Of a stretch of 64,000 bases of DNA, positions 2,418-64,000 are shown piece by piece. Under the pieces are notes generated by a model. It was not told where the DNA came from, did no database searches, and was given only the letters and a program-made list of their open reading frames with translations. Each line of letters begins with the position of its first letter. The stretch's first letter is position 1. The stretch comes from Candidatus Magasanikiibacteriota bacterium (GTDB lineage Bacteria; Patescibacteriota; Patescibacteriia; Magasanikbacterales; GWA2-37-8), in NCBI GenBank assembly GCA_030650025.1, contig JAUSEN010000009.1:29144-93143 (forward strand), read 5' to 3'. Made by a program: the position numbers and the translations under genes.

Positions 2418-2560
2418 ATCGCCACGTTAGTACAACATAAATTTATGATTTCTATAGTAGCAGGGGAGAGGGGAGGGCGTCAATTTAAAAAACAAAAAAG
2501 CCGTAAGAATAAAAAAACCGTTTTTAACGGCTAAAAATATTTTAAATTTCTAGAGCCCGG

Positions 2561-2591
2561 CCCCGGCGCGCTAATCGCTAGCGCGCCGGGG
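2561..2591. terminator. GC-rich hairpin terminator of the high-GC island A gene
   Basis: ccccggcgcgcta-atcgc-tagcgcgccgggg: a 13-bp perfect stem immediately downstream of the minus-strand gene that ends at 2606. Confidence 0.6.
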
Positions 2592-2605
2592 CTTAGGCAG
2601 TGAGC

Positions 2606-3121
2606 TCACTCGAGGTACTCCCTGATCTCGATCGTGGTGATCGAGGTTCTGGCGCGGAGTTTCTGCATGATGTCGTCTACGATCAGGTGGCCGTCACCCT
2701 CCCAGCTCGCCCGCCGCGCTGGCGTGAGGCTCTGCGTGTAGTCGGCCACCACCACGTCGTGCTCATCGTGGCCGGTGTAGCCGAGCCACGGGTCCGGGTC
2801 GCCCGGCGTGTCGCCGATCTCGCCCACGGCGCCATCGATGTCGAAGTGGACCTCGACTTCAGCCACCTCGGGCGATTCGGCCACGGCGTACCAGACGAAC
2901 AGGATGCCCTCCCCCCGGCGCTCCAGGATGCCGTAGCCGTGGGCGAAGGCGCGCGCGTAGCCCTGGCGCGTCGGGTGTTCGGCAGCGAAGGCCGCCTGGT
3001 GCTCCGCGATGAAGTGCCTCTGGTGGTAGGCGTAGTGGATCACCCCGGTGAGGAGGACGACCCCGGCGAGAGCCAGGACAGCGCCGCCTGCAAGCAGAAC
3101 CAGGAACCAGTTCTTTTTCAT
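2606..3121 (-). CDS. hypothetical membrane-anchored or secreted protein (high-GC island A)
   Basis: N-terminus MKKNWFLVLLAGGAVLALAGVVLL is signal- or anchor-like. SD gaggtaatcgATG is present. The gene is about 68% GC, against the low-GC surroundings. Confidence 0.45.
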   Translation of the reverse strand: MKKNWFLVLLAGGAVLALAGVVLLTGVIHYAYHQRHFIAEHQAAFAAEHPTRQGYARAFAHGYGILERRGEGILFVWYAVAESPEVAEVEVHFDIDGAVGEIGDTPGDPDPWLGYTGHDEHDVVVADYTQSLTPARRASWEGDGHLIVDDIMQKLRARTSITTIEIREYLE

Positions 3122-3321
3122 CGATTACCTCGAGTTGAGGGAGCAGCTTTGGCCGATCTAGGCGGCCACAGCTACTCCGGTTGTTGGTGTTCAGGTCCGC
3201 CAGCCATCAATTTAGGGCCAGCGCTGAAACGCTTCATCTTAACAAGTTTTAGGCGAGCCGTCAAGGTGGCGCGGGCGGGTAAAGCTAATTATACATATTG
3301 ATAACGACCACCTGGGGATTG

Positions 3322-4436: not shown

Positions 4437-5999
4437 TTACTTTTTTCGTTTCTTTCGTCGATTGTTTTTGGGCCGGTGGGTGGCTTCAGCCTGGCGAACT
4501 GCCATTTTGCGCGCTCCCAGACTCCGCAAAGCCCAAACACCGGCGCCCACTGCCGCTACGATTCCGGCAAAACCAAGTTTGCCGCAGGAATCGCGGCTTT
4601 CTTCGATGTGTAAATTTTGTTTGCCTGCCCCGGCATCGGCCGTCCGCGCTTGTTTGGTAAATGGCAGGCGCGCCTTAGACACCACTATAGATTTAAATTC
4701 TTGGCCGTGGCGAACGCGCTCTAACAATTTACGCCCCAAGTGCTCAACCTTATTGGCATCACCAGAAATTTCAACAATTTGGAACAAGGCTTGGTTGCGC
4801 GGGGTAACCGGAGTGTTGGCGCTAATTTTAATGCCGTAATAATCTGCCTCTTGCACTAATTCTTCGGCGGCCAGCTCGCGTAATTGCGCGCCTGCCATTT
4901 GGTGCCCTAAATCATCAACGTTGGCGGCATCTTCTGGCTTGGGCACATACAGCAAATCGTTGAGCGCTCCCAGTTTATCTTTGGCAAAAAGTAAATTACC
5001 AATCGCCCCGCGCGCTTCGCTCCGCCTGGCCGACAATTGCGCATACTTAGTTACTTCGGCCGAGGTTTTCATAAACGGCGGTTGTTCCCGCTCTCTAAAG
5101 TCAGGCTCAAAAGCGTGCATTAAATGCCCGGTTTCGTGGCTAATGATGTTATCAAGTTGATTAAAATTGCCGCGCAATAAATAACGGCGGTGCCTTCTCT
5201 GCGACGCGCCAATGTCAGCCCATTTGTCTTGGTCCGCCCCCTGCTTATCGGCAATATGGCCCATGATAAAGTCGTCCGTGATCATATTCAGATACTCTCG
5301 GTTAGCAACCGCCATTTGCCGTTCGGCACCGTGCTCGGCGGCCAGAGCCGGCTCATCTATAATAATATTGCCACTGTCGGTAAAGGCGGCAAAGTGCAGT
5401 AGCCGCGTATTTGTATCCGGCTGGTCAATGGCCAGGCTATTCACAAACAACACCGAACGTTCGCGCGGCTGGCCTTCAAACATTACGGTGTCCGAAGTTA
5501 TTTTATTAACATGATAAAAACCCGCTCGGGGTAATTCACTTACGATGGTGTCGCGGTCATCTTTAATTCGATCGGTACGGATAACAGTGGCAACACCAAA
5601 CGCGGCCAGCCGACGGGGAATTTCGGTAAAAAATGTTTGGTAAAATGCCGGTTCGCTGTACGCCGGCAAGTTTGGGAGTATTGTTTGGCAGGCCGCCCAA
5701 ACCCGCTGGTGATCACGGGCGTCTGGGATGCGGCCGGCCGCGACTATCGCCGGGATTGATTTTTGCAAGGCAATAATTTCCTGGACCAAGTTTTTAAGTT
5801 TTGGCGGCAGTTCGCGTTTCGCTTCCTGAAAATTAATTTTTTCATGCCTTTTGTCAAAATCGAGCTGCCGAATCAGGTTTTGTATTTCCAGACTTTGATC
5901 TTTAAATTCCTGGCCACAGGCTTCTTTTTCGCCAGCCCCGGAAATTACAGCGGCCCCAATCAGACCTATAAAATCGCGGCGGGTAATTCCTTCTCCCAT
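4437..5999 (-). CDS. secreted zinc metallopeptidase-like protein with Tat-type signal
   Basis: N-terminus TRRDFIGLIGAAV carries a twin-arginine motif. HETGH fits HExxH. The C-terminus has a hydrophobic anchor and a basic tail. Confidence 0.45.
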   Translation of the reverse strand: MGEGITRRDFIGLIGAAVISGAGEKEACGQEFKDQSLEIQNLIRQLDFDKRHEKINFQEAKRELPPKLKNLVQEIIALQKSIPAIVAAGRIPDARDHQRVWAACQTILPNLPAYSEPAFYQTFFTEIPRRLAAFGVATVIRTDRIKDDRDTIVSELPRAGFYHVNKITSDTVMFEGQPRERSVLFVNSLAIDQPDTNTRLLHFAAFTDSGNIIIDEPALAAEHGAERQMAVANREYLNMITDDFIMGHIADKQGADQDKWADIGASQRRHRRYLLRGNFNQLDNIISHETGHLMHAFEPDFREREQPPFMKTSAEVTKYAQLSARRSEARGAIGNLLFAKDKLGALNDLLYVPKPEDAANVDDLGHQMAGAQLRELAAEELVQEADYYGIKISANTPVTPRNQALFQIVEISGDANKVEHLGRKLLERVRHGQEFKSIVVSKARLPFTKQARTADAGAGKQNLHIEESRDSCGKLGFAGIVAAVGAGVWALRSLGARKMAVRQAEATHRPKNNRRKKRKK

Positions 6000-13105: not shown

Positions 13106-13167
13106 CAAGACCACCCTCGATATACCGGCAAGAACTTGTAAGTATATCGAGTGTGAAGGTGGTCTTG
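13106..13167. repeat. long imperfect hairpin at the left junction of high-GC island B
   Basis: caagaccaccctcgatatac ... gtatatcgagtgtgaaggtggtcttg. Confidence 0.5.
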
Positions 13168-13191
13168 TGTGTGTAGAACCGTTCGAGCGAA

Positions 13192-13222
13192 CCCTCCCTC
13201 CAGCGACACGCCGGAGGGAGGG
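13192..13222. terminator. GC-rich hairpin terminator of the island B gene
   Basis: ccctccctcc-agcgacacgcc-ggagggaggg: a 10-bp stem downstream of the minus-strand gene that ends at 13245. Confidence 0.6.
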
Positions 13223-13244
13223 TTGTACACCCAGCCGCGGCGCG

Positions 13245-13793
13245 TTACTCGTCGTCCAACTTCATCCGGGTATGAATCCGCGGCGGCGGGGCTCGCGGCG
13301 GATCCGGGGGCGGGGGCGGCGGTCGCGGAGCGACCAGGCGGGGTTCACGCTGGATCGCTTCCGCGATCGCGGCTTCGATCGCCGCGGCGAGCCCCGGCTC
13401 GCGGGGCGGCAGTCCACCGATGTCGAAGCCCAGGCTTCCCCAGCTCACGGTAGCGTCCGCGCGGAACTTGCCAGCGGATACAACCTGCCCCTGTCTGCGG
13501 TAGTCCACTTCCACCTCCTCCGCGCACTTCTCCGGGTCGCTGGCGAGTAGGGGGTGCTTTGTGTAGATGGCCACCAACCGCGCGTGCCGGTCAACGTTGC
13601 CGACCAGCAGGGTGCCGTCCGAGAGCAAGACGAGTTTCCCTACGTACTTGTGATGGTCGTACAGCCTCTCGAAAGTCGGAACTTCTGCTTCCGGGTAATT
13701 CTGGTGGCAGAATGCCACCACGTTCGTCACGTTCGTGGTGCGCATTGGTCGCCTCCTGCCCACCACCCTACGCAATTTTTTATGGGTTGTCAA
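13245..13793 (-). CDS. hypothetical protein with Pro-rich C-terminus (high-GC island B)
   Basis: 182 aa at about 66% GC with a strong SD (aggaggcgaccaATG). C-terminus reads PRPPPPPPDPPRAPPP. No recognisable family. Confidence 0.4.
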   Translation of the reverse strand: MTTHKKLRRVVGRRRPMRTTNVTNVVAFCHQNYPEAEVPTFERLYDHHKYVGKLVLLSDGTLLVGNVDRHARLVAIYTKHPLLASDPEKCAEEVEVDYRRQGQVVSAGKFRADATVSWGSLGFDIGGLPPREPGLAAAIEAAIAEAIQREPRLVAPRPPPPPPDPPRAPPPRIHTRMKLDDE

Positions 13794-13840: not shown

Positions 13841-13872
13841 GTAGGGAACCCCGCCAAGGCGGGGTTCCCTAC
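13841..13872. repeat. REP family-2 hairpin (GTAGGGA...TCCCTAC); also serves as the recA terminator.
   Basis: gtagggaaccccgccaaggcggggttccctac. Preceded by the conserved leader aaaaaatattttccgtaaaatttt that also sits at 18604-18630. Confidence 0.65.
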
Positions 13873-18630: not shown

Positions 18631-18659
18631 GTAGGGACAGGGCATTGCCCTGTCCCTAC
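18631..18659. repeat. REP family-2 hairpin
   Basis: gtagggacagggcattgccctgtccctac, with the same leader ...aatattgtccgtaaaattttg as the 13841 copy. Confidence 0.65.
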
Positions 18660-19106: not shown

Positions 19107-19172
19107 AAGTTCGTCGTCACCTTCTGGGGATAATTTAATATTTTCCCAAGAAGGTGATGCGACGACGAACTT
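19107..19172. repeat. imperfect long hairpin inside island C, between its two genes
   Basis: gaagttcgtcgtcaccttct ... agaaggtgatgcgacgacgaacttg. Confidence 0.45.
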
Positions 19173-19225
19173 GATACTGTTCGCTGTCGCACCACTTTGT
19201 GCGTGGTGCGTGTTGTCCCTTGGTG

Positions 19226-19837
19226 CTAGACGCGCGGGTGGCGCTCTCCGCGGCCGAGCAGGTTCTCGAAGAGCCCGTGCAGTTCTGCCGGGAGGTCGGC
19301 GAGCGCCTTTTCGAACGTGTCGGCCGGCTCGTGGCGGTCGATCTCGATCCTGATCCGGACCGAGAGCCCAGAGCGCGTGAAGCGCTCCTTGAGGTCGGGG
19401 CGGCTGTCGAACGCGGCCTTGAGCACCGCGCCCAGCTCCTGGGCGAGCGCCTCGGGCTCGTTGCTCTGGCTGGTCCCCGAGCCGTTGCCGCCCGCCGCCT
19501 GGTCGGTGGTGCCGCCCGTCCTGGCGGAGTTGAGCGGGTTGCCGAACATCTCGAAGAGCGAAGCGATCCCGGGCGGCATCTCGCGCGGCTGCGCGGCGAG
19601 GCCGTCGAGCTTACCTTCGTTCTGGAGACGGAGAACCTCGGCCGCGAGCGCCTTGCCCTCGGCTTTGGTGCCTCTCATGCCGAGCAGGTCGCCGACAGCG
19701 GTGTCGAGCTCGGCCCGGCTACCGAACACCACCTTCTTGCCGTCGGCGCGGTGGACCATGCCGTGCGCGCCGCAGTTGGTGCACATCTTGATCCTGGGCT
19801 TGGGCTGGTCACCCTGCCCCGTCTTCTTTCTGGTCAT
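19226..19837 (-). CDS. hypothetical protein with an N-terminal Cys cluster (high-GC island C)
   Basis: 203 aa with MCTNCGAHGMVH near the N-terminus and SD ggaaggaaggtggccaATG. Third-position GC exceeds first-position GC on this strand; the antisense ORFs show the opposite. Confidence 0.4.
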   Translation of the reverse strand: MTRKKTGQGDQPKPRIKMCTNCGAHGMVHRADGKKVVFGSRAELDTAVGDLLGMRGTKAEGKALAAEVLRLQNEGKLDGLAAQPREMPPGIASLFEMFGNPLNSARTGGTTDQAAGGNGSGTSQSNEPEALAQELGAVLKAAFDSRPDLKERFTRSGLSVRIRIEIDRHEPADTFEKALADLPAELHGLFENLLGRGERHPRV

Positions 19838-20092
19838 TGGCCACCTTCCTTCCGCTCCCTCGTGATTGAGGGGAAGAAAGTCGACAACTGTTATCGCCTA
19901 TCTTCCCATCAATACGAATCAGAAAATGACTAGGAAGTGTAGCAAAAAAAGAGATATGTGTAAAGGCTCAAAATTGAACGCTGACCTTACCCTGTGGATA
20001 ATTTTTATATAAAAAGTCGGCCAAACTATTTTTTTATCTAACTTTAGCCAAAAAATTACTGCTCTTGACAACCACTTATCCGCCAGTTCCAT

Positions 20093-34717: not shown

Positions 34718-36538
34718 ATGCCAGGGCGCAGGATTATTATTTTTTTTCTCGGCCTCGCCGTTTTAGTCGGTGCGAGTTCGTTTTGGTATGGCGCCAATAC
34801 CGCGCGCTTGACCGCGGCCCTGGCGGACAGTAGCCCGGAATTTTTAGCGTTACCCACGCACCGCGCCACCAGTCTCGACCGAAGTATGTTTGAGGCTTTT
34901 GGCGCGAGCGCCGGAGAAACTGTGGTGGAGCCGGAATTGGTCCGGAGCGGAGTTATTCCGCACCATTTAATTGCCGGAAAATATATTGCGGATTTTTTTA
35001 ATAAATTAAAAATCCAAAATCCGTCCGTGGTGGCGCTGATTGGGCCTAATCATTCCAACAGCGGTGGCAATAAATTGGCAACCAGCCAGTACGCCTGGCG
35101 CACACCCTACGGCGAGCTGGCGCCGGCCGCTGATATTATCGCCAGTCTGGCGGCGAGTAAATTGGTTGTGGTTGATGAAAAAGTTATTGCTACCGAACAT
35201 AGTATCGGCGCGCTCGTGCCTTTTATCAAGCGCGCCTGGCCTAAGGCCGCGTTCCTGCCGATAATTGTTAAGAGTACGGCGTCGACCTCAACCATCAAAG
35301 AATTAGCGGTCGCGCTCAATAATATTCTCCCTAAAAACAGTCTGGTGTTGGCGAGCGTTGATTTTTCCCACTATCTTCCCCAAACAGCCGCCAATTTTCA
35401 TGACGCGCTAGCGCTCAATGTTTTGGAAACCGGGGACGCGGAGCGCGTCAATAAGATGGAAATAGACAGCCCGCCCAGCCTTTATTTTTTATTACAATAT
35501 AATAAGCTAATTGGCGCGGAAAATTTTCGGTCGGTGTTCCATACCAACAGCGCCGCTATTGTCGGCCGCCCCGATCTGGCCGAGACCACCAGCCATATTG
35601 GCGGTTACTTTGTTTCGGGCGCTCCATCGGCCGATCACGTAGTTACTCTGCAATTTTTTGGCGACATTATGCTTGATCGCAATGTGGCCAAAGCCATGGG
35701 CAAAGAAGGCTTGGATTATATATTCGCGCCCTGGCAAGCCTCGGAATACAGATTCCTCCAGGGTATGGATGTTTTATTGGCCAACCTCGAAGGCCCGTTT
35801 GCTGTTAAGCGCGTTCCCACTAGCAAATCAATCGCTTTCCGGTTCGATCCAGTGTTTGCCAGTGAATTAAAAAAATATAATTTTTCAGCTTTTAGTTTGG
35901 CCAATAATCACAGCTATGACATGGGCAGGAAAAATGTTGAGTTCACTCGTCAAACTTTGGACGCGTCGGGGTTGGGATATTTTGGCGATGAGTTAAAAGA
36001 GGGCGTGGAGCTAACGTGGTTAGCGACTTCCACCCCCGAACCGGTCGCTTTCATCGGCCTGCACAACACCTATCACGAACCAGATTTAAAAAAAGTAGAG
36101 GAGGTTCTAAGCGTTGCCAAACAAACCGCCAAATATGTTATTGTTAACATTCATTGGGGCGAAGAATATAAACAAATTTCCAATCAAAAACAGCGTAAAC
36201 TCGCCCATTGGCTTGTTGACCACGGCGCCACGGTTATAGTCGGACACCACCCGCACGTCGTTCAGGAAATGGAGTTGTATAAAGATAAGCCAATTTTCTA
36301 TTCGCTCGGCAATTTTATTTTTGATCAATATTTTTCCGCGCCCACGCAAGAAGGCCTTTCGGTGGGGTTGACTTTAGAGGGCGGGGGAGTAAAATCCATT
36401 TATCTCTTCCCGTTCTATAGCGTCAAGTCGCAGGTGTTTATGATGGAAGGGGAGCGGCGGAAGAAGTTTTTAGAGTGGTTTGGAGAAAGCAGCCAGATTG
36501 ATGGTAAGAAAATTGAAGCTGGTAGAATTGAATTATGA
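34718..36538 (+). CDS. fusion protein: Memo/AmmeMemoRadiSam-B-like N-domain plus CapA/PgsA metallophosphatase-like C-domain.
   Basis: N-half has GVIPHHLIAGKY, GPNHS and SVDFSHY (Memo-like). C-half has LANNHSYDMG, GHHPHVVQ and YSLGNFIFDQ (PGA_cap/CapA). Confidence 0.55.
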   Translation: MPGRRIIIFFLGLAVLVGASSFWYGANTARLTAALADSSPEFLALPTHRATSLDRSMFEAFGASAGETVVEPELVRSGVIPHHLIAGKYIADFFNKLKIQNPSVVALIGPNHSNSGGNKLATSQYAWRTPYGELAPAADIIASLAASKLVVVDEKVIATEHSIGALVPFIKRAWPKAAFLPIIVKSTASTSTIKELAVALNNILPKNSLVLASVDFSHYLPQTAANFHDALALNVLETGDAERVNKMEIDSPPSLYFLLQYNKLIGAENFRSVFHTNSAAIVGRPDLAETTSHIGGYFVSGAPSADHVVTLQFFGDIMLDRNVAKAMGKEGLDYIFAPWQASEYRFLQGMDVLLANLEGPFAVKRVPTSKSIAFRFDPVFASELKKYNFSAFSLANNHSYDMGRKNVEFTRQTLDASGLGYFGDELKEGVELTWLATSTPEPVAFIGLHNTYHEPDLKKVEEVLSVAKQTAKYVIVNIHWGEEYKQISNQKQRKLAHWLVDHGATVIVGHHPHVVQEMELYKDKPIFYSLGNFIFDQYFSAPTQEGLSVGLTLEGGGVKSIYLFPFYSVKSQVFMMEGERRKKFLEWFGESSQIDGKKIEAGRIEL

Positions 36539-38591: not shown

Positions 38592-39083
38592 CGAATCCTC
38601 GGCATTGACCCCGGTTTTGGCCGCCTTGGCTACGGCGTGATTGAACAAAAGAAATCCGGCCAAGATTGGCAGGCTCTTACTTACGGCTGTATTTCCACCA
38701 ACCCCAAAGCCACGTTCGTGGAGCGTCTTAAAGATATCCACGAAGAGCTGGTAGATTTAATTAAAGAATATCAGCCCACCCGCGTGGCCGTGGAACAAAT
38801 TTTTTATTTCAAAAACGCCAAGACGGTTATTGACGTGGCGCAGGCGCGCGGAGTAGTAATTCTGACGGCTGTGGAAGCCGGCCTCCCGGTAGACGAATTC
38901 ACGCCCCTCCAAGTTAAACAAGCCATCACCGGCTATGGCCGAGCCGAAAAAGGCCAGATGCAAAAAATGGTGGGAGTAATTTTAAAAATTAAAGAACCAA
39001 TTAAATCCGACGACGCGGCCGATGCCTTGGCCGTGGCATTGACGGCTGGGCAAACTTTATGGCTCAAAAAATTCTTGAAATAA
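38589..39083 (+). CDS. ruvC: Holliday junction resolvase RuvC
   Basis: MRILGIDPGFGRLGYGV matches the RuvC N-terminus with its catalytic Asp. The ATG at 38589 right after the palindrome is preferred over 38571. Confidence 0.85.
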   Translation: MRILGIDPGFGRLGYGVIEQKKSGQDWQALTYGCISTNPKATFVERLKDIHEELVDLIKEYQPTRVAVEQIFYFKNAKTVIDVAQARGVVILTAVEAGLPVDEFTPLQVKQAITGYGRAEKGQMQKMVGVILKIKEPIKSDDAADALAVALTAGQTLWLKKFLK

Positions 39084-39601
39084 ACCCTAAAAAATACCCG
39101 TTTGTTTTAACCGTGCCTAACATTAGGAGCGGCCACAATGTGGGTGCTATGTTTAGGACGGCCGACGGCGCGGGCGTAGATAAAATTTATCTCTGTGGCT
39201 ATAGCCCGCGCCCGCCGCACCATCAAGTTGACAAAGTATCGCTCGGCGCCGAAAAATCCGTGCCGTGGGTAGGGGCAAGGTATGCCTTGCCCCTACTTAA
39301 GAAACTCAAAATTGCGGGTTACCACCTGGTTGCCTTGGAGCAAACCCCAAATAGTGTTAGTATATATAGGTGGAGGCCTGCCCGACTGAATGGCAGTCGT
39401 TCGGGCGGGCCACAGTTTCCACTCGCGCTTATTGTCGGCAACGAGAAGACTGGCGTTCCCCCGCCAATTTTAAAACTTTGTGACACGGTTGTGCATTTGC
39501 CCATGCGTGGCGCCAAAAATAGTTTAAATGTCAGTGTCGCCGCCGGTATTGCTCTGTATTATATTTCCGCAAAATTAATCCACGGGCATTCCCACGCCTA
39601 G
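39059..39601 (+). CDS. SpoU/TrmH-family RNA 2'-O-methyltransferase
   Basis: SPOUT motifs GNEKTGVP and SLNVSVAAGIALY. A GC-rich in-frame palindromic insert at about 39380-39425 encodes RPARLNGSRSGGP. Confidence 0.65.
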   Translation: MAQKILEINPKKYPFVLTVPNIRSGHNVGAMFRTADGAGVDKIYLCGYSPRPPHHQVDKVSLGAEKSVPWVGARYALPLLKKLKIAGYHLVALEQTPNSVSIYRWRPARLNGSRSGGPQFPLALIVGNEKTGVPPPILKLCDTVVHLPMRGAKNSLNVSVAAGIALYYISAKLIHGHSHA

Positions 39602-42022: not shown

Positions 42023-42043
42023 GATTCTAAATTAAAGAAAATC

Positions 42044-42128
42044 ACGTAGAGACGTTGCACTGCAACGTCTCTTTGCACTGCAACGTCTCTTTGCACTGCA
42101 ACGTCTCTTTGCACTGCAACGTCTCTTT
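42044..42128. repeat. REP family-1 array: four tandem 18-nt units forming GAGACGTTGCA-c-TGCAACGTCTC hairpins.
   Basis: cacgtagagacgttgcactgcaacgtctctttgcactgcaacgtctcttt..., immediately 5' of the RAYT-1 start. Confidence 0.8.
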
Positions 42129-42135
42129 AAAAATT

Positions 42136-42780
42136 ATGATAGAAAAATTTAAAAATAAATATCGAATACCATCGGCACGTTTGCCTGATTGGGATTACAG
42201 CAATGCCGGTTTATATTTTGTAACAATTTGCACAAAAAATAGATTTTGTTATTTTGGCGATATTATTAAAAATAAGATGTGGTTATCTAAAATGGGTAAA
42301 ATTGCACAGCAATATTGGTCGGAAATTCCCAATCATTTTTCACATGTCTATCTGGATGAATATGTAATAATGCCTAATCATATTCACGGTATTATCAGAA
42401 TCACGGAAAACAATGTAAATCATAATCACGTAGAGACGTTGCACTGCAACGTCTCTTTGCACTGCAACGTCTCCGAAACAACATCGCCAAAAACGCCAGA
42501 GACGTTGCACTGCAACGTCTCTACGCAAACGATGATGCAGAAATCGCTAATGTCAAAAATTTCGCCTCGGACTGGTTCGCTAGGCACCATTATTCGTTCG
42601 TTTAAATCAATTTTTACCAGAACAATCAATCAAGACCCTACATTGCAATATTTTGGTTGGCAAGAACGCTACTACGAATCGATCATCCGCGATCAAAAAT
42701 CTCTGGAACACATTCGCGGATACATTCGTGATAATCCAAAGAATTGGGAAAAAGATGAATTATTCCCGCATATTAAATAA
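42136..42780 (+). CDS. IS200/IS605-family Y1 (HuH) transposase, REP-associated (RAYT-1)
   Basis: DWDYSNAGLYFVTICTKNR and HuH YVIMPNHIHGII, with YY in ...FGWQERYYESIIRD... at the presumptive catalytic Tyr. Start refined to MIEKF...; the first 27 tool-ORF codons are REP translation. Confidence 0.7.
   Translation: MIEKFKNKYRIPSARLPDWDYSNAGLYFVTICTKNRFCYFGDIIKNKMWLSKMGKIAQQYWSEIPNHFSHVYLDEYVIMPNHIHGIIRITENNVNHNHVETLHCNVSLHCNVSETTSPKTPETLHCNVSTQTMMQKSLMSKISPRTGSLGTIIRSFKSIFTRTINQDPTLQYFGWQERYYESIIRDQKSLEHIRGYIRDNPKNWEKDELFPHIK
42428..42523 (+). repeat. REP family-1 copies (2.5 units) inserted in-frame inside RAYT-1.
   Basis: cgtagagacgttgcactgcaacgtctctttgcactgcaacgtctcc ... cagagacgttgcactgcaacgtctcta, encoding ETLHCNVSLHCNVS...ETLHCNVST. 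Confidence 0.75.
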
Positions 42781-50979: not shown

Positions 50980-51729
50980 ATGGGATCGAGGAATCTGAAG
51001 AGTGGAAGCCTGGTTCTCCAGGAGGACGTCAGGAAGGACTTCCGCGGGTCGGAAGGCATGCTGGAGCTCCTCATGACCGTTCTCACCGGTCTCCTGACGG
51101 GAACCGTGATCATCCGCTACATGGACCGGGTGAAGGGTGGCCCCGGACATCAGAGCCAGGTGCGAGCCGTCCGGTTCGATAACGTTCGCCACCAGATCAT
51201 CCTGACGGCCCAGCCGGGCGACAACAAGACCCACTGGCGGCTGTCACTCACTCTGGCGCGAACAACCGACTTAAGCAAGGTGTACGCCGCGCTCGTCGCA
51301 AGGCTCGGTGTTACTCCGGCAGAAGTAGTCGGTAACAACGGCTCACCGGGCGACCAAGCCGCTCTGCGCGTCGAGCTGGCGCGGCTCGAACAGCTTCATG
51401 GCGAGCAGAAGGCCGAGCATGATCGTCATCAGGCGGCCGAAGCCGAGCGCGCAGTTCAGCGTGAGGGGCTCGTAAATGATCGCAGGGCGCTCGAAGAGCT
51501 CATCGTCGAGGTCGACGAGGAGAGTCGGCGCGCCACTGCCGCCCGGGCCGCGGCCGAAGAAGCCCTCGAACAGACCGAGCTTGAGCTCGACGAGGTCAGG
51601 GACAAGCTCGAGGCCATCAGGAAGAAGGCCGATGCCCTCGCTGCCGCGCGTCAGCTCCTGGCCGAGGCCAACCTCGACCTCGCTGACCCGGGCGTGCTCG
51701 CGGCCCTGCGCGGAGAGCCGGCCAAGTAG
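50980..51729 (+). CDS. hypothetical TM plus coiled-coil protein (high-GC island D)
   Basis: 249 aa with TM LLMTVLTGLLTGTVII and a long Ala/Glu/Arg-rich coiled coil. The gene is about 68% GC, and the composition switch falls within about 15 nt of the start codon. Confidence 0.4.
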   Translation: MGSRNLKSGSLVLQEDVRKDFRGSEGMLELLMTVLTGLLTGTVIIRYMDRVKGGPGHQSQVRAVRFDNVRHQIILTAQPGDNKTHWRLSLTLARTTDLSKVYAALVARLGVTPAEVVGNNGSPGDQAALRVELARLEQLHGEQKAEHDRHQAAEAERAVQREGLVNDRRALEELIVEVDEESRRATAARAAAEEALEQTELELDEVRDKLEAIRKKADALAAARQLLAEANLDLADPGVLAALRGEPAK

Positions 51730-51765
51730 GGTTCCGCCACCCCAACGTACTTCCATTTCCAACCC

Positions 51766-51790
51766 CTGCCGGTCCCGAGGCGACCGGCAG
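51766..51790 (+). terminator. GC-rich hairpin terminator of the island D gene
   Basis: ctgccggtc-ccgaggc-gaccggcag. Confidence 0.55.
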
Positions 51791-52104
51791 TACTCACAAA
51801 ACATCACTATTCAAGTGGTGTTTTTTGATGCCACAGATTTTGAAATACAAATAATTGACAAAATTTAGCATTTTTAGTACTCTTAAATTAAGACGTTTTG
51901 CCCATTATCGACGGGCAGAGCTCGTCCGCCGCGGCGGGCGGGATCGCGTTAAGAGCAGAAATCCTGCGACCATCAGTCGTTGGAGAGTAGACCTCTTCGG
52001 GAATGCCCGTTACAGCTCAAAATTAAGCGAAAGCACAAGATGGTACCGTCCAGTCATTCGACCGGACTCTTGGCACGAATATTTTCGTGTTTTTTTATTG
52101 AAAA

Positions 52105-60308: not shown

Positions 60309-60341
60309 GTAGGGACCCCGACGTTACGTCGGGGTCCCTAC
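60309..60341. repeat. REP family-2 hairpin 5' of RAYT-2
   Basis: gtagggaccccgacgttacgtcggggtccctac. Confidence 0.65.
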
Positions 60342-60392: not shown

Positions 60393-60977
60393 ATGCCAGT
60401 TCGGCCAGCTCGTAAATTGAATCGTTGGCACAAATGGGATTATAGTAATTTTGGGTTCTATTTTGTAACAATATGCACGCAAGGTCGCCAGCAGTATTTT
60501 GGTGAAATCAGAAACGGTTTAAAGATTTTAAACAAATGCGGGAAAATTGTCGAAAATTTTTTGGGAGAAATCGAAGGCCATTTTAAAAATGTATATCTGG
60601 ATGAATTTGTGGTGATGCCAAACCACGTGCATGCGATAATTTTGGTTGATAATCAGGTGAATGGAAAAAGAACACAAACAATTGTAGGGAACGTATTCGC
60701 GCAAACGCGCGTAGGGACAGGGCAGTGCCCTGTCCCTACAAGGCGAAATAGCGCTAGATATGGGTTGTTATCTAAAATAATAAATGGTTTAAAAAACGTC
60801 GTCACAAAAGAGATCAGAAAACAATTTCGTTATAATGAATTCGGCTGGCAGCGGTCATTTCACGATCACATCATTCGCACTCCCACAGAATTAAACCGTG
60901 TTCGGCAATATATTGCGGCTAATCCAGAGAATTGGGAAGAGGACAGAAATAACCCAAAAAATTTTAAAAAATTATGA
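60393..60977 (+). CDS. IS200/IS605-family Y1 transposase homologue, REP-associated (RAYT-2), possibly catalytically degenerate.
   Basis: HKWDYSNFGFYFVTICTQGR and HuH FVVMPNHVHAII. The presumptive catalytic YY of RAYT-1 is F-H here (FGWQRSFHDHIIRT). Overlaps ruvA by 4 nt. Confidence 0.65.
   Translation: MPVRPARKLNRWHKWDYSNFGFYFVTICTQGRQQYFGEIRNGLKILNKCGKIVENFLGEIEGHFKNVYLDEFVVMPNHVHAIILVDNQVNGKRTQTIVGNVFAQTRVGTGQCPVPTRRNSARYGLLSKIINGLKNVVTKEIRKQFRYNEFGWQRSFHDHIIRTPTELNRVRQYIAANPENWEEDRNNPKNFKKL
60711..60739. repeat. REP family-2 hairpin inserted in-frame inside RAYT-2 (encodes RVGTGQCPVPT).
   Basis: gtagggacagggcagtgccctgtccctac, a 1-nt variant of the 18631 copy. A partial gtagggaac...gcgcaaacgcgc sits just upstream. 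Confidence 0.7.
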
Positions 60978-61549
60978 TCTCTCAAATTATTGGCAAAGTT
61001 ATCAGCAATAATGGATCAGATGTAGTTTTGTCCACCGCGGGTGGGGTCGGGTATAAAATTGCCGTCAGCCCTAAGGCAATCGAATTATGTTTAGTAGGTA
61101 AAGATGTATCCCTAGAAACATATTTGGTCGTGCGCGAAGATGCTCTTGACCTGTTTGGTTTTGCCAATAACTCCGAACGAGAATTATTTAAAAATTGTTT
61201 ATCGGTTTCGGGTATCGGGCCCAAGAGCGCTTTGAATATTTTAAAACTGGGAAGTGTGGAGGAAATTACGCTCGCGATCGCGCGCGGTGATATTGGTTAT
61301 CTTACCAAAGTCAGCGGCATTGGCAAAAAAACCGCCGAGCGCTTAGTGGTGGAACTCCGTGGTAAAGCGGCCAAGGGTTTGAGCGAAGAAGATTTAGTAA
61401 AACCAGCTGGAGTTTTGGGAGATGTGGTAGAAGCTTTAATGACGCTTGGCTACTCGGCCGAAGTGGCGCGCGATGTTGCTAAGAGTCTGAAGCAAGAAGG
61501 CAAGACGAGCGAACAGTTACTTCGCGAAGCGCTGAAGATGATGAAGTAG
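60974..61549 (+). CDS. ruvA: Holliday junction branch-migration protein RuvA
   Basis: OB domain, two HhH motifs (GIGPKSA and GIGKKTA), and the C-terminal domain III. Confidence 0.9.
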   Translation: MISQIIGKVISNNGSDVVLSTAGGVGYKIAVSPKAIELCLVGKDVSLETYLVVREDALDLFGFANNSERELFKNCLSVSGIGPKSALNILKLGSVEEITLAIARGDIGYLTKVSGIGKKTAERLVVELRGKAAKGLSEEDLVKPAGVLGDVVEALMTLGYSAEVARDVAKSLKQEGKTSEQLLREALKMMK

Positions 61550-61585
61550 AAAAATAATTGCGTTGATAGTATTAAAAAGTAGTGC

Positions 61586-61632
61586 GCGGCCGTCCTAATA
61601 AACATCTGGTGTGATGTCTGTCAGGACGGCCG
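61586..61632. terminator. GC-rich hairpin terminator of the island E gene
   Basis: gcggccgtcctaa...tcaggacggccg. Confidence 0.5.
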
Positions 61633-61656
61633 TTGTGGTTTTGCCGGTGAGCTCTC

Positions 61657-62112
61657 CTAGGCATGCTGTGCCAGCAGGTTTTCGAACGCCCGGGCCGACT
61701 CGGCCATGGCTTCGTCCTGCCGGTCCTGCCGATCCGCTACTTCTGCGGCGACCAGGGTCGCGAGCGCGAGCGCGTCGCTCGGCAAGATCTTCTCGCCAAG
61801 GTGCCGGCAGAGGATGCGCGCGAGCATCAGGCCTTGGTCAGTCTCGGGCGTGGCGGCCGAGACGCGCACGAGCCCATTTGCCAGCCGCGTGAGGATCACA
61901 GCCTTGATGTGCTCTCCGCTTCCGAGGCCGCGCTCCCGCGTGTACGCCGCGATAGCCGCGAGGAGCACCTTGGCCATCTTCGGGACGAGGTGCTCGAGGT
62001 GGGCGAGTTCGGTAGGCAGGGGAGAGATCTGCCCCGTAGCGCCAACCGCCATCGCTCCGAGTTCGAGAATGGTCCACGCCATCCTCTCTTTCACTTGCGG
62101 AACAGTGGTCAT
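61657..62112 (-). CDS. hypothetical protein (high-GC island E)
   Basis: 151 aa, about 66% GC, with SD aaaggagcggccATG. All-helical and Ala/Leu-rich. Confidence 0.35.
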   Translation of the reverse strand: MTTVPQVKERMAWTILELGAMAVGATGQISPLPTELAHLEHLVPKMAKVLLAAIAAYTRERGLGSGEHIKAVILTRLANGLVRVSAATPETDQGLMLARILCRHLGEKILPSDALALATLVAAEVADRQDRQDEAMAESARAFENLLAQHA

Positions 62113-62201
62113 GGCCGCTCCTTTCTTCTATCGAAGGTGGTTTTGCCCGGCCGCCACAGAGGCCAAAAAGCCACTCTGGCAAGTGGGCAAAAGTTTTAAC
62201 G

Positions 62202-63194: not shown

Positions 63195-63338
63195 AGTACA
63201 AAAAAACAGCCACCTTTTCGGGTGGCCGCTATGAAATGGGTAAATTAAATTGGGGTAGAAAATTTCTCATGCTTAGGCTAGTTTAGCACTACGTGAATGG
63301 TTGGTCAAAGGCGTTTATACACAGCATAGAGAAGTTGT

Positions 63339-63371
63339 CACCACTCACCGCGCTTCGCGCGGTGAGTGGTG
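63339..63371 (-). terminator. GC-rich perfect hairpin terminator after upp
   Basis: caccactcaccgcgc-ttc-gcgcggtgagtggtg. Confidence 0.55.
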
Positions 63372-63382
63372 GCTGGTGGCTC

Positions 63383-64000
63383 TCAGCCGCTCCGGATGAC
63401 GGCATCGGAGGGCCCGTTGAGCTTGTTTCCCATGTCGCCGGCGCCCGGCCAGATATAGTCGTACGCCGTGAGCCCCCCGTCAAGCGCGCCCGTAAAGAGG
63501 TGCGCGTTGGGGATGGCGTTCAAGAACCGCTCGGCGCCCTCGGGCGCCGCGATCAGGCTGAGCGCCACGTGCCAGCATGCCGTTCCCGGCAAGCTGGCGT
63601 AGTGCTCTACGGCCCTAAGCAGCGAGCCGCCGGTTGCGAGCATCGGGTCCGGGTAGACCACGATCGCACCGTTGACGGTACTCCCCGTCTTGCTTCCTTG
63701 GATTTCCACTCCGTTGACGTGGCCGGTCGCGTCGGTCGTCCGGTTCATGGTGAGGATGTCCATGCGCGCGTTCTCGAACCCGAGCGCCGTCAGCGCATCG
63801 AGCACGACATCCGAGGGGAGGAGTCCGCCGCGCGCGATCGCCGTCACCACCACGCTCGTCTGGGTGTTCGGCACCAGGCCGCGCCAAACCCCTCTCTCGC
63901 CCAACTCGGTCTGGAGCGGGGTGGGCACGCTGGCCTCACGCAGCAGGAACAGCTGGTTGATCATCTCCATCGTGAGGAGGTGGTAGAGCTCGCGCACCCA
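63383..64000 (-). CDS. upp: uracil phosphoribosyltransferase (high-GC island F); N-terminus at or beyond the window edge.
   Basis: PRPP loop DPMLATGGS, AAPEG, and a C-terminal YIWPGAGDMGNKL. About 68% GC. Confidence 0.8.
   Translation of the reverse strand, partial: WVRELYHLLTMEMINQLFLLREASVPTPLQTELGERGVWRGLVPNTQTSVVVTAIARGGLLPSDVVLDALTALGFENARMDILTMNRTTDATGHVNGVEIQGSKTGSTVNGAIVVYPDPMLATGGSLLRAVEHYASLPGTACWHVALSLIAAPEGAERFLNAIPNAHLFTGALDGGLTAYDYIWPGAGDMGNKLNGPSDAVIRSG

Follow-up and report, generated by a model that had tools for sequence, protein, structure and literature searches.

Two probable TnpA-Y1 subclass 2.4 REPtrons in a Candidatus Magasanikbacteria genome carry REP palindromes in frame within their own nuclease genes

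Introduction

Transposases of the TnpA-Y1 subclass 2.4, which corresponds to Bertels group 4 of the REP-associated tyrosine transposases (RAYTs; REP, repetitive extragenic palindrome), have one defining oddity, a REP that lies inside the transposase gene itself (Quentin, Siguier, Chandler & Fichant 2018, BMC Genomics 19:475). Here, we describe two genes of this kind, RAYT-1 and RAYT-2, on a contig of 184,627 bp from a metagenome-assembled genome (MAG) of Candidatus Magasanikbacteria, a lineage of the Candidate Phyla Radiation (CPR). The stretch of the contig that was analysed comprises 64 kb and is referred to as the window; the repeats at RAYT-1 and RAYT-2 are referred to as REP-1 and REP-2. 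With a probability of roughly 0.8, both loci are REPtrons of the published subclass.

Proteins of subclass 2.4 have a median length of 194 aa, the HuH motif NH[IFV]H, the W motif WQ and the Y motif YIxNNP, together with a variable insertion between β3 and αC and an 8-aa insert at the end of αB. Their REPs are canonical or have a "double foot" (GT[AG]G with a 3′ C[TC]AC) and are located within about 1 kb of the gene; the hosts are Cyanobacteria, Bacteroidetes and "various phyla" (Quentin et al. 2018, BMC Genomics 19:475). Table S1 of the same study lists GTAGAGACGTTGCATGCAACGTCTCTAC for a subclass 2.4 gene of Cyanothece, which has the stem of REP-1 with a slightly different loop, and GTAGAGACAGGGCATTGCCCTGTCTCTAC, which is close to REP-2, in an entry with the subclass "?" (Quentin et al. 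2018, BMC Genomics 19:475). Group 4 is common in Cyanobacteria, Chlorobia and Caldilineae, and the 16-mers flanking its genes are of low abundance (Bertels et al. 2017). No later literature on subclass 2.4 was found after the study of Quentin et al. (2018). REPs are also known in frame inside other protein genes, a situation for which the Rickettsia palindromic elements are cited via Ogata et al. (Di Nocera et al. 2013, BMC Genomics 14:522).

Results

The window contains only two such RAYT genes, both with intact open reading frames (ORFs; Table 1), and an alignment of the two proteins gave 40% identity (79/197), somewhat less than the 45% or so that had been assumed in a first-pass annotation of this DNA. 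Pfam PF01797 (Y1_Tnp; gathering threshold 23 bits) matched RAYT-1 with 29.6 and RAYT-2 with 32.6 bits, in both cases over the C-terminal half only, and the model NF033573 (transpos_IS200) gave 18 bits for RAYT-2 against a cut-off of 55 and no match for RAYT-1. In an alignment of 47 family members, H82, H84, W175, R185, Y196, I197 and N200 (RAYT-1 numbering) are invariant. The HuH motif reads NHIH in RAYT-1 and NHVH in RAYT-2, as expected from the subclass pattern, and the Y motifs YIRDNP and YIAANP conform to the class-2 arrangement Y-x-x-x-N-P. Motifs, a length of about 194 aa, the β3-αC insert, double-foot REPs in the flanks and REPs in the gene are therefore all features that the two loci have in common with subclass 2.4. 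They differ from it in the CPR (Patescibacteria) host, in the fourth residue of the Y motif, which in both proteins departs from the N of YIxNNP, and in the presence of two paralogues with different REP types not more than 18 kb apart, one of which overlaps ruvA.

Among the sequence searches of the PDB, only the profile of the family alignment reached the structure of the E. coli enzyme TnpAREP (YafM; 4ER8; subclass 2.2), with an E value of 6e-6; single-sequence searches with RAYT-1 or RAYT-2 returned spurious weak matches only (influenza hemagglutinin, a capsid protein), which were partly driven by the repeat peptide and were discarded. The AlphaFold model of RAYT-1 has a mean predicted local distance difference test score (pLDDT) of 81.8, and a Foldseek search with this model ranked 4ER8_A first (E 3.8e-6, template modelling score 0.63 on the target), followed by 2XMA, 2VIH, 2A6M and 2F4F, which are TnpA structures of IS608, ISDra2 and IS200. 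The data show that RAYT-1 and RAYT-2 encode HUH/Y1 single-strand-DNA nucleases.

In E. coli TnpAREP, W94, Q95, E100, H101 and R104 are the residues that recognise the GTAG foot of the REP, and N119 is a metal ligand near the catalytic tyrosine (Quentin et al. 2018, BMC Genomics 19:475). The profile alignment equates W94, Q95 and R104 of 4ER8 with W175, Q176 and R185 of RAYT-1, and Y115 and N119 with Y196 and N200; the family segment WQxRFYDHIIR is aligned to W94-Q95-P-R-F98-W99-E100-H101-A-I-R104, and W152, Q153 and R162 of RAYT-2 likewise fall on W94, Q95 and R104. The predicted catalytic tyrosine is Y196 in RAYT-1 and Y173 in RAYT-2, which lies inside YIxxNP and is aligned to Y115. The Y-Y pair of RAYT-1 had earlier been taken for the catalytic one, but Y179-Y180 is aligned to F98-W99, within the segment that recognises GTAG. 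This position varies over the family (RFYD, SFHD, RYHD), and the F-H of RAYT-2, which had suggested an inactive or domesticated copy, is a common variant; the catalytic motif YIxxNP is retained in both genes. Since all catalytic and GTAG-recognition residues that can be checked are kept, neither RAYT looks inactivated.

E. coli TnpAREP thus resembles the two proteins in its HUH/Y1 fold, as the best structural match, in the conservation of W94, Q95, R104, Y115 and N119 and in the association with GTAG-footed hairpins. It differs from them in a short β3-αC loop and the absence of a REP in the gene, its REPs are bulged, single-footed and present in high copy number, and the identity in the structural alignment is only about 15%. 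The TnpA proteins of IS200/IS605 (subclass 1.1) likewise have an HUH/Y1 fold and recognise subterminal hairpins in DNA, but carry a Y---Q motif, in which the RAYTs of the window have Asn for Gln, and belong to true insertion sequences with identical multi-copy genes, whereas the two RAYTs of the window are only 40% identical.

Table 1. Positions of the RAYT genes, their repeats and related hairpins in the window (strand as +, or. for none).
Feature	Position	Strand	Description
RAYT-1	42136..42780	+	intact ORF, 214 aa; HUH/Y1 nuclease, probably of TnpA-Y1 subclass 2.4
RAYT-1 key residues			HuH H82/H84, W175-Q176, R185, Y196-I-R-D-N200-P201
RAYT-2	60393..60977	+	intact ORF, 194 aa; HUH/Y1 nuclease, same probable subclass as RAYT-1
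RAYT-2 key residues			H78/H80, W152-Q153, R162, Y173-I-A-A-N177-P178
Upstream REP-1 array	42046..42128	+	complete palindrome GTAGAGACGTTGCAcTGCAACGTCTCT (42046-42072) and three 18-bp units TTGCACTGCAACGTCTCT
In-gene REP-1 block	42430..42524	+	encodes V99-T130 of RAYT-1
Palindrome A	42430..42456	+	5′ GTAG foot
18-bp partial unit	42457..42473	+
Spacer	42474..42497	+	24 nt
Palindrome B	42498..42524	+	3′ CTAC foot
50-nt run	42424..42473	+	identical to 42040-42089 of the upstream array
RAYT-2 upstream hairpin	60309..60341	+	GTAGGGACCCCGACGTtACGTCGGGGTCCCTAC, double-foot, 16-bp stem
RAYT-2 in-gene REP	60711..60739	+	GTAGGGACAGGGCAgTGCCCTGTCCCTAC, double-foot, 14-bp stem, encodes V107-T116 (VGTGQCPVPT)
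Sibling of RAYT-2 in-gene REP	18631..18659	.	intergenic; 28/29 positions match, loop base differs
Double-foot hairpin GTAGGG...CCCTAC	13841..13872	.	distinct inner stem; just downstream of recA stop
28-nt double-foot palindrome	39269..39296	+	GTAGGGGCAAGGTATGCCTTGCCCCTAC, in frame (VGARYALPL) inside SpoU/TrmH methyltransferase ORF 39059-39601
ruvA	60974..61549	+	ATG overlaps RAYT-2 stop (ATGA); context only

The repeats of the RAYT-1 locus were followed with the 17-mer TTGCACTGCAACGTCTC, which has ten copies in the window where 0.12 are expected, all of them at 42049-42125 or 42433-42521; no REP-1 copy is found outside the RAYT-1 locus in the 64 kb. The upstream array, which stops 7 nt short of the ATG of RAYT-1, was recovered by Tandem Repeats Finder at 42055-42128 (period 18, 4.1 copies, 100% match). 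It had been described as four tandem hairpins; there is one full palindrome, with its GTAG foot at 42046, and the three further units are partial and consist of the loop and the right arm each. Inside the gene, the reading of 2.5 units in frame was right with regard to the frame, while the composition is two full palindromes and one partial unit of 18 bp. Because palindrome A bears only the 5′ GTAG foot and palindrome B only the 3′ CTAC foot, the two would make up an inverted REP pair, a candidate REPIN; when folded as a single strand of DNA, the block gives one long composite hairpin (-33.4 kcal/mol, z -8.8). A second copy of this doublet (GTAG-REP, 24-nt spacer, REP-CTAC) is absent from the window. 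The 50-nt run shared by the in-gene block and the upstream array extends 6 nt (AATCAC, codons N97-H98) beyond the GTAG foot on the 5′ side. The RAYT-1 locus is AT-rich (38% GC).

At RAYT-2, a perfect hairpin is indeed present in frame at the place where the annotation had put a copy of REP-2. The upstream hairpin is located 29 nt past the stop of the preceding ORF and 51 nt before RAYT-2. The view that RAYT-2 is preceded by REP-2 and contains it holds insofar as there are hairpins at both places, but they belong to different subfamilies: they share only the 8-nt foot GTAGGGAC/GTCCCTAC and differ in their inner stems, so that "own REP" is a loose term for this gene. A second GTAGGGA foot at 60684 in RAYT-2 is possibly a degenerate left arm. 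Altogether, perfect hairpins are found at 42048-42072, 42432-42456, 42498-42522, 60309-60341 and 60711-60739, with folding z-scores of -5.5 to -8.8 compared to shuffled controls.

Both insertions were held to lie in the same variable segment between the HuH motif and the next helix, and this was borne out by the alignment, in which V107-T116 of RAYT-2 stands at the place of the loop stretch of RAYT-1. In the model of RAYT-1, the HuH strand comprises residues 82-89 and the following helix starts at residue 133; pLDDT drops below 50 at residues 97-129 only, which is the stretch encoded by the REPs. The in-gene REPs therefore occupy a permissive loop, β3-αC, that is predicted to be disordered. 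The length of the segment behind the HuH motif ranges from 34 to 131 aa across a sample of 232 homologous proteins.

In nearly all of these homologues, part of the segment is a peptide whose back-translation gives a GTAG...CTAC palindrome. The peptides include VETL[HQ]CNVST, RRDVACNVST, VETLHATSL, VGTGQCPVPT, VETPNLGVST, VETRQCLVST and VGNADLRSLQ, and the proteins with such a palindrome are about 40-53% identical and come from Cyanobacteria, Bacteroidota, Chlorobiota, Chloroflexota and CPR. For a view at the level of DNA, 80 genomic loci were fetched with patterns confined to the HuH and WQ motifs, and 67 of the genes could be parsed. A perfect hairpin in the loop, that is a perfect stem of at least 8 bp in the post-HuH segment, is present in 51 of the 67 (76%), and hairpin density is 4.4 per kb in the loop segment and 0.23 per kb in the flanks. 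Thirty loop hairpins have a stem of at least 12 bp; they are mostly 28-nt double-foot palindromes with the invariant foot GTAG.G.C and covarying inner positions. Genes that are only about 50% identical carry identical 28-nt REPs. In intact-looking genes at seven of the loci (L011, L025, L036, L047, L075, L076 and L080), no loop hairpin is recognisable.

Could the peptide be what is conserved, for instance as a Cys/His metal-binding or interaction motif such as ETLHCNVS or VGTGQCPVPT, with palindromy being incidental? The peptides do contain His and Cys and recur in many homologues. However, one and the same palindrome is read in two frames and gives unrelated peptides, VETLHCNVST or VETLHATSL on the one hand and RRDVACNVST on the other, and the unrelated peptides of other clades are all encoded by palindromes. 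There are 21 hairpins with the GTAG foot in frame 0 and 13 with the foot in frame 1, and frame 2, in which the foot would be read as a TAG stop, is never used; in-gene copies persist only in the two frames in which the foot makes no stop. The alternation of H and Q in ETL[HQ]CNVS maps to the unpaired base of the hairpin loop. The use of both stop-free frames and the H/Q exchange at the loop base argue that DNA is conserved and not the peptide. Since the stretch is also predicted to be disordered and the same sequence occurs in intergenic DNA, selection on the peptide is very improbable.

A second alternative, favoured by the first-pass annotation, is that, in each RAYT independently, a copy of the REP from the gene's own flank was recently inserted at an equivalent permissive position. 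The 50-nt run shared by the two REP-1 arrays indicates that some local copying is recent, and this run and the 18-bp right-arm units are the reasons why local turnover of units can be seen in RAYT-1. Insert-free or degraded alleles are also found in the family, for example at L025, L036, L076 and L080, a homologue from a Cyclobacterium MAG has a further REP-like insert elsewhere in the gene, and REP-1 is a demonstrable insertion in an IscS gene elsewhere (see below). Against recent hits stand the occurrence of one palindrome at one site in more than 100 homologues across phyla and its presence in three quarters of the related genomic genes, the difference in subfamily between the in-gene and the flanking hairpin of RAYT-2, and the lack of another REP-1 copy in the 64 kb that could have served as source. 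We conclude that the loop palindrome is a long-standing feature of the whole family and not a recent hit in this genome; the claim that each RAYT had been hit by its cognate repeat here is not supported, and recent, independent hits are an unlikely explanation.

Flanking REPs in a REPtron arrangement are common among the related loci and often belong to another subfamily than the in-gene REP, as in RAYT-2, and in 22 of 44 loci the arm of the in-gene REP is not repeated anywhere in the surrounding 10 kb or so. The relation between REP type and protein phylogeny is weak (r = -0.13; 168 of 2000 permutations were as low). Two individual homologues deserve mention. The gene at 5137-5763 of locus L005 (Candidatus Uhrbacteria) has an in-frame stop in place of the invariant Trp of WQ (FV*QERFWDH) and is either a pseudogene or has a recoded stop. 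The Cyclobacterium gene (locus L029, 10001-10582) carries its second REP-like segment, GTLQCKSP, in the N-terminal β-hairpin, besides the usual copy in the loop.

To follow REP-1 beyond its locus, metagenome contigs were scanned for exact matches to GTAGAGACGTTGCANTGCAACGTCTCTAC, which gave at least 120 loci with at least 122 copies. Of the copies listed, eight form part of RAYT genes and two are located no more than 500 bp away from such a gene; for the other 112, the flanks that were fetched contain no RAYT gene. Open frames of 200 or more codons extend across 18 of the listed copies. In-frame copies among the matches listed are found in PurD-PurM, in a prolyl-tRNA synthetase, in which the RRDVAL unit is present eight times, and in an IscS homologue, whose REP-encoded residues correspond to a 12-residue gap relative to structure 4R5F. 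The proposal that REPs move into coding sequence and keep the frame is supported by this metagenomic IscS, whereas the copies in the RAYTs are not recent private insertions. REP-1 is thus a dispersed family that is able to sit in frame in genes. Its right-arm unit is expanded eight to twelve times in tandem (RRDVAL/RRDVAI) at L150, the prolyl-tRNA synthetase ORF, and at L131, a long open frame, and REP-1 in general tends to form partial units of 18 nt in tandem.

The in-frame copies in IscS, PurD-PurM and the prolyl-tRNA synthetase behave like the Rickettsia palindromic elements and other REPs inside ORFs: they are short in-frame palindromes that add peptide segments, often as dimers or clusters. 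In contrast, the Rickettsia element RPE-1 is longer and specific to Rickettsia. The RAYT copies differ from REPs in other ORFs in that the host gene is that of the REP's own presumed nuclease and that the site is constant across the family.

About 7% of the listed REP-1 copies lie in one RAYT loop of some 100 nt, a very large enrichment over a uniform expectation, and this bears on a third alternative, namely that the loop REP is a selected element, either a linked master copy that is inherited together with the nuclease and seeds further, extragenic copies, or a hairpin in cis by way of which the enzyme or the structure of the mRNA would limit the expression of the gene. In line with this, a perfect stem of 12-15 bp is nearly universal although the proteins have diverged to about 40-50% identity, and in half of the loci for which this was determined the in-gene arm is the only copy in its neighbourhood; the identity of the two REP-1 arrays continues for 6 nt in the coding flank, as could be the case if the gene had been the source of the upstream array. 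On the other hand, some genes that look intact have no insert or a decayed one, copy number and position in the loop vary widely, as predicted by tolerated turnover, most of the listed copies are far from any RAYT gene, and transposition acting in cis would predict enrichment near the gene as well. We consider a selected loop REP possible, with a likelihood well below that of the REPtron reading and above that of recent hits. If true, the nuclease gene would always travel with a perfect copy of its substrate, and this would explain the identical 28-nt palindromes in genes of about 50% identity across phyla, the genes with the only copy within 10 kb and the over-representation of REP-1 in one loop.

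The public record was compared with the window. The protein database that was searched contains no homologue of RAYT-1 or RAYT-2 above about 53% identity, apart from RAYT-2's own entry. RAYT-2 and the SpoU protein have entries of 100% identity among the NCBI proteins from the source contig, and both were also found at 100% in a database of 5.8 billion proteins, in which RAYT-1 had no match above 53%; in the public annotation, RAYT-1 may have been missed or taken for a pseudogene. The overlap of the RAYT-2 stop with a ruvA start (ATGA, at 60974) could be confirmed, and the downstream ORF encodes RuvA. In none of the 80 related loci are ruvA, ruvC, recA or polyamine genes conserved neighbours of the RAYT. 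A weak tblastn match of RAYT-2 at 36170-36397 (minus strand) was considered as a third RAYT and rejected as a remnant because it is antisense within an ORF of 606 aa.

Further GTAGGG...CCCTAC hairpins of the window, at 13841 and 39269, have other inner stems (Table 1). The one in the SpoU ORF is not a simple insertion, since the orthologues (64-77% identity) have equal length there and read EYxKQxxRL at this position; it seems that existing sequence was overwritten or turned into a palindrome on the spot. The same ORF has an insertion of 11 residues, ARLNGSRSGGP, at 39377-39409, which is missing from 12 of 12 aligned orthologues and whose DNA (GCCCGACTGAATGGCAGTCGTTCGGGC) is an imperfect hairpin with no GTAG foot. 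Six islands of about 64-66% GC stand out from the window mean of 47% (2541-3200, 13121-13720, 19141-19900, 50981-51840, 61581-62180 and 63281-63980). They have no mutual similarity and contain one ORF of 150-250 aa each, with a GC content at third codon positions of 0.8-0.9; one ORF encodes a uracil phosphoribosyltransferase, the others have no credible Pfam match, and several of the islands adjoin long hairpins or GTAGGG hairpins. Neither tRNA genes nor Rfam families at the gathering threshold were found across the 64-kb window.

Discussion

The features of both loci are best accounted for by REPtrons of subclass 2.4 (RAYT group 4). By analogy with E. coli TnpAREP, the enzyme would bind hairpins with a 5′ GTAG foot and cut and rejoin them as single-stranded DNA, an activity that would mobilise or amplify REPs. 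The nuclease activity, or its bias to act in cis, may place and keep REPs beside and inside the gene. The loop palindrome varies by local gain, loss and decay of units, and its perfect form may be maintained at the level of DNA, through selection or because it is renewed from the pool of REPs.

Several points weigh against this interpretation. The NCBIfam equivalog NF047646 (REP_Tyr_transpos) gave 59.4 bits for RAYT-1 and 58.8 bits for RAYT-2, below the cut-off of 80; we attribute this to the loop insert, which splits the match, and to the distance from E. coli-type RAYTs. The proteins have been placed in subclass 2.4 by their motifs and features, and cleavage of REPs by enzymes of this subclass is extrapolated from an E. 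coli enzyme of subclass 2.2. Among the 120 best homologues of RAYT-1, 113 have a REP-1 peptide in the corresponding position; this ranking is biased as the query itself includes the peptide encoded by the REP. The covariation of inner stem positions was counted in hairpins pre-selected as perfect and hence describes their diversity and is no test of structure. Finally, the copy number of REPs in the source genome is apparently very low, with REP-1 solely at the RAYT-1 locus in 64 kb, and with no copy elsewhere in this stretch current mobilisation is unproven.

REPs in frame in their own RAYT genes were published in 2018, and RAYT-1 and RAYT-2 therefore do not change this picture. They add REPtrons of probable subclass 2.4 in a CPR genome, that of a member of the Magasanikbacteria, with two divergent paralogues close together, and they correct a tempting misreading of the catalytic tyrosine. 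In the larger sample, most genes of the family have the loop palindrome, which is conserved as DNA; both stop-free frames are used, and the frame that would create a stop is never seen. The metagenome matches show REP-1 to be widely spread and to enter housekeeping genes with the frame kept.

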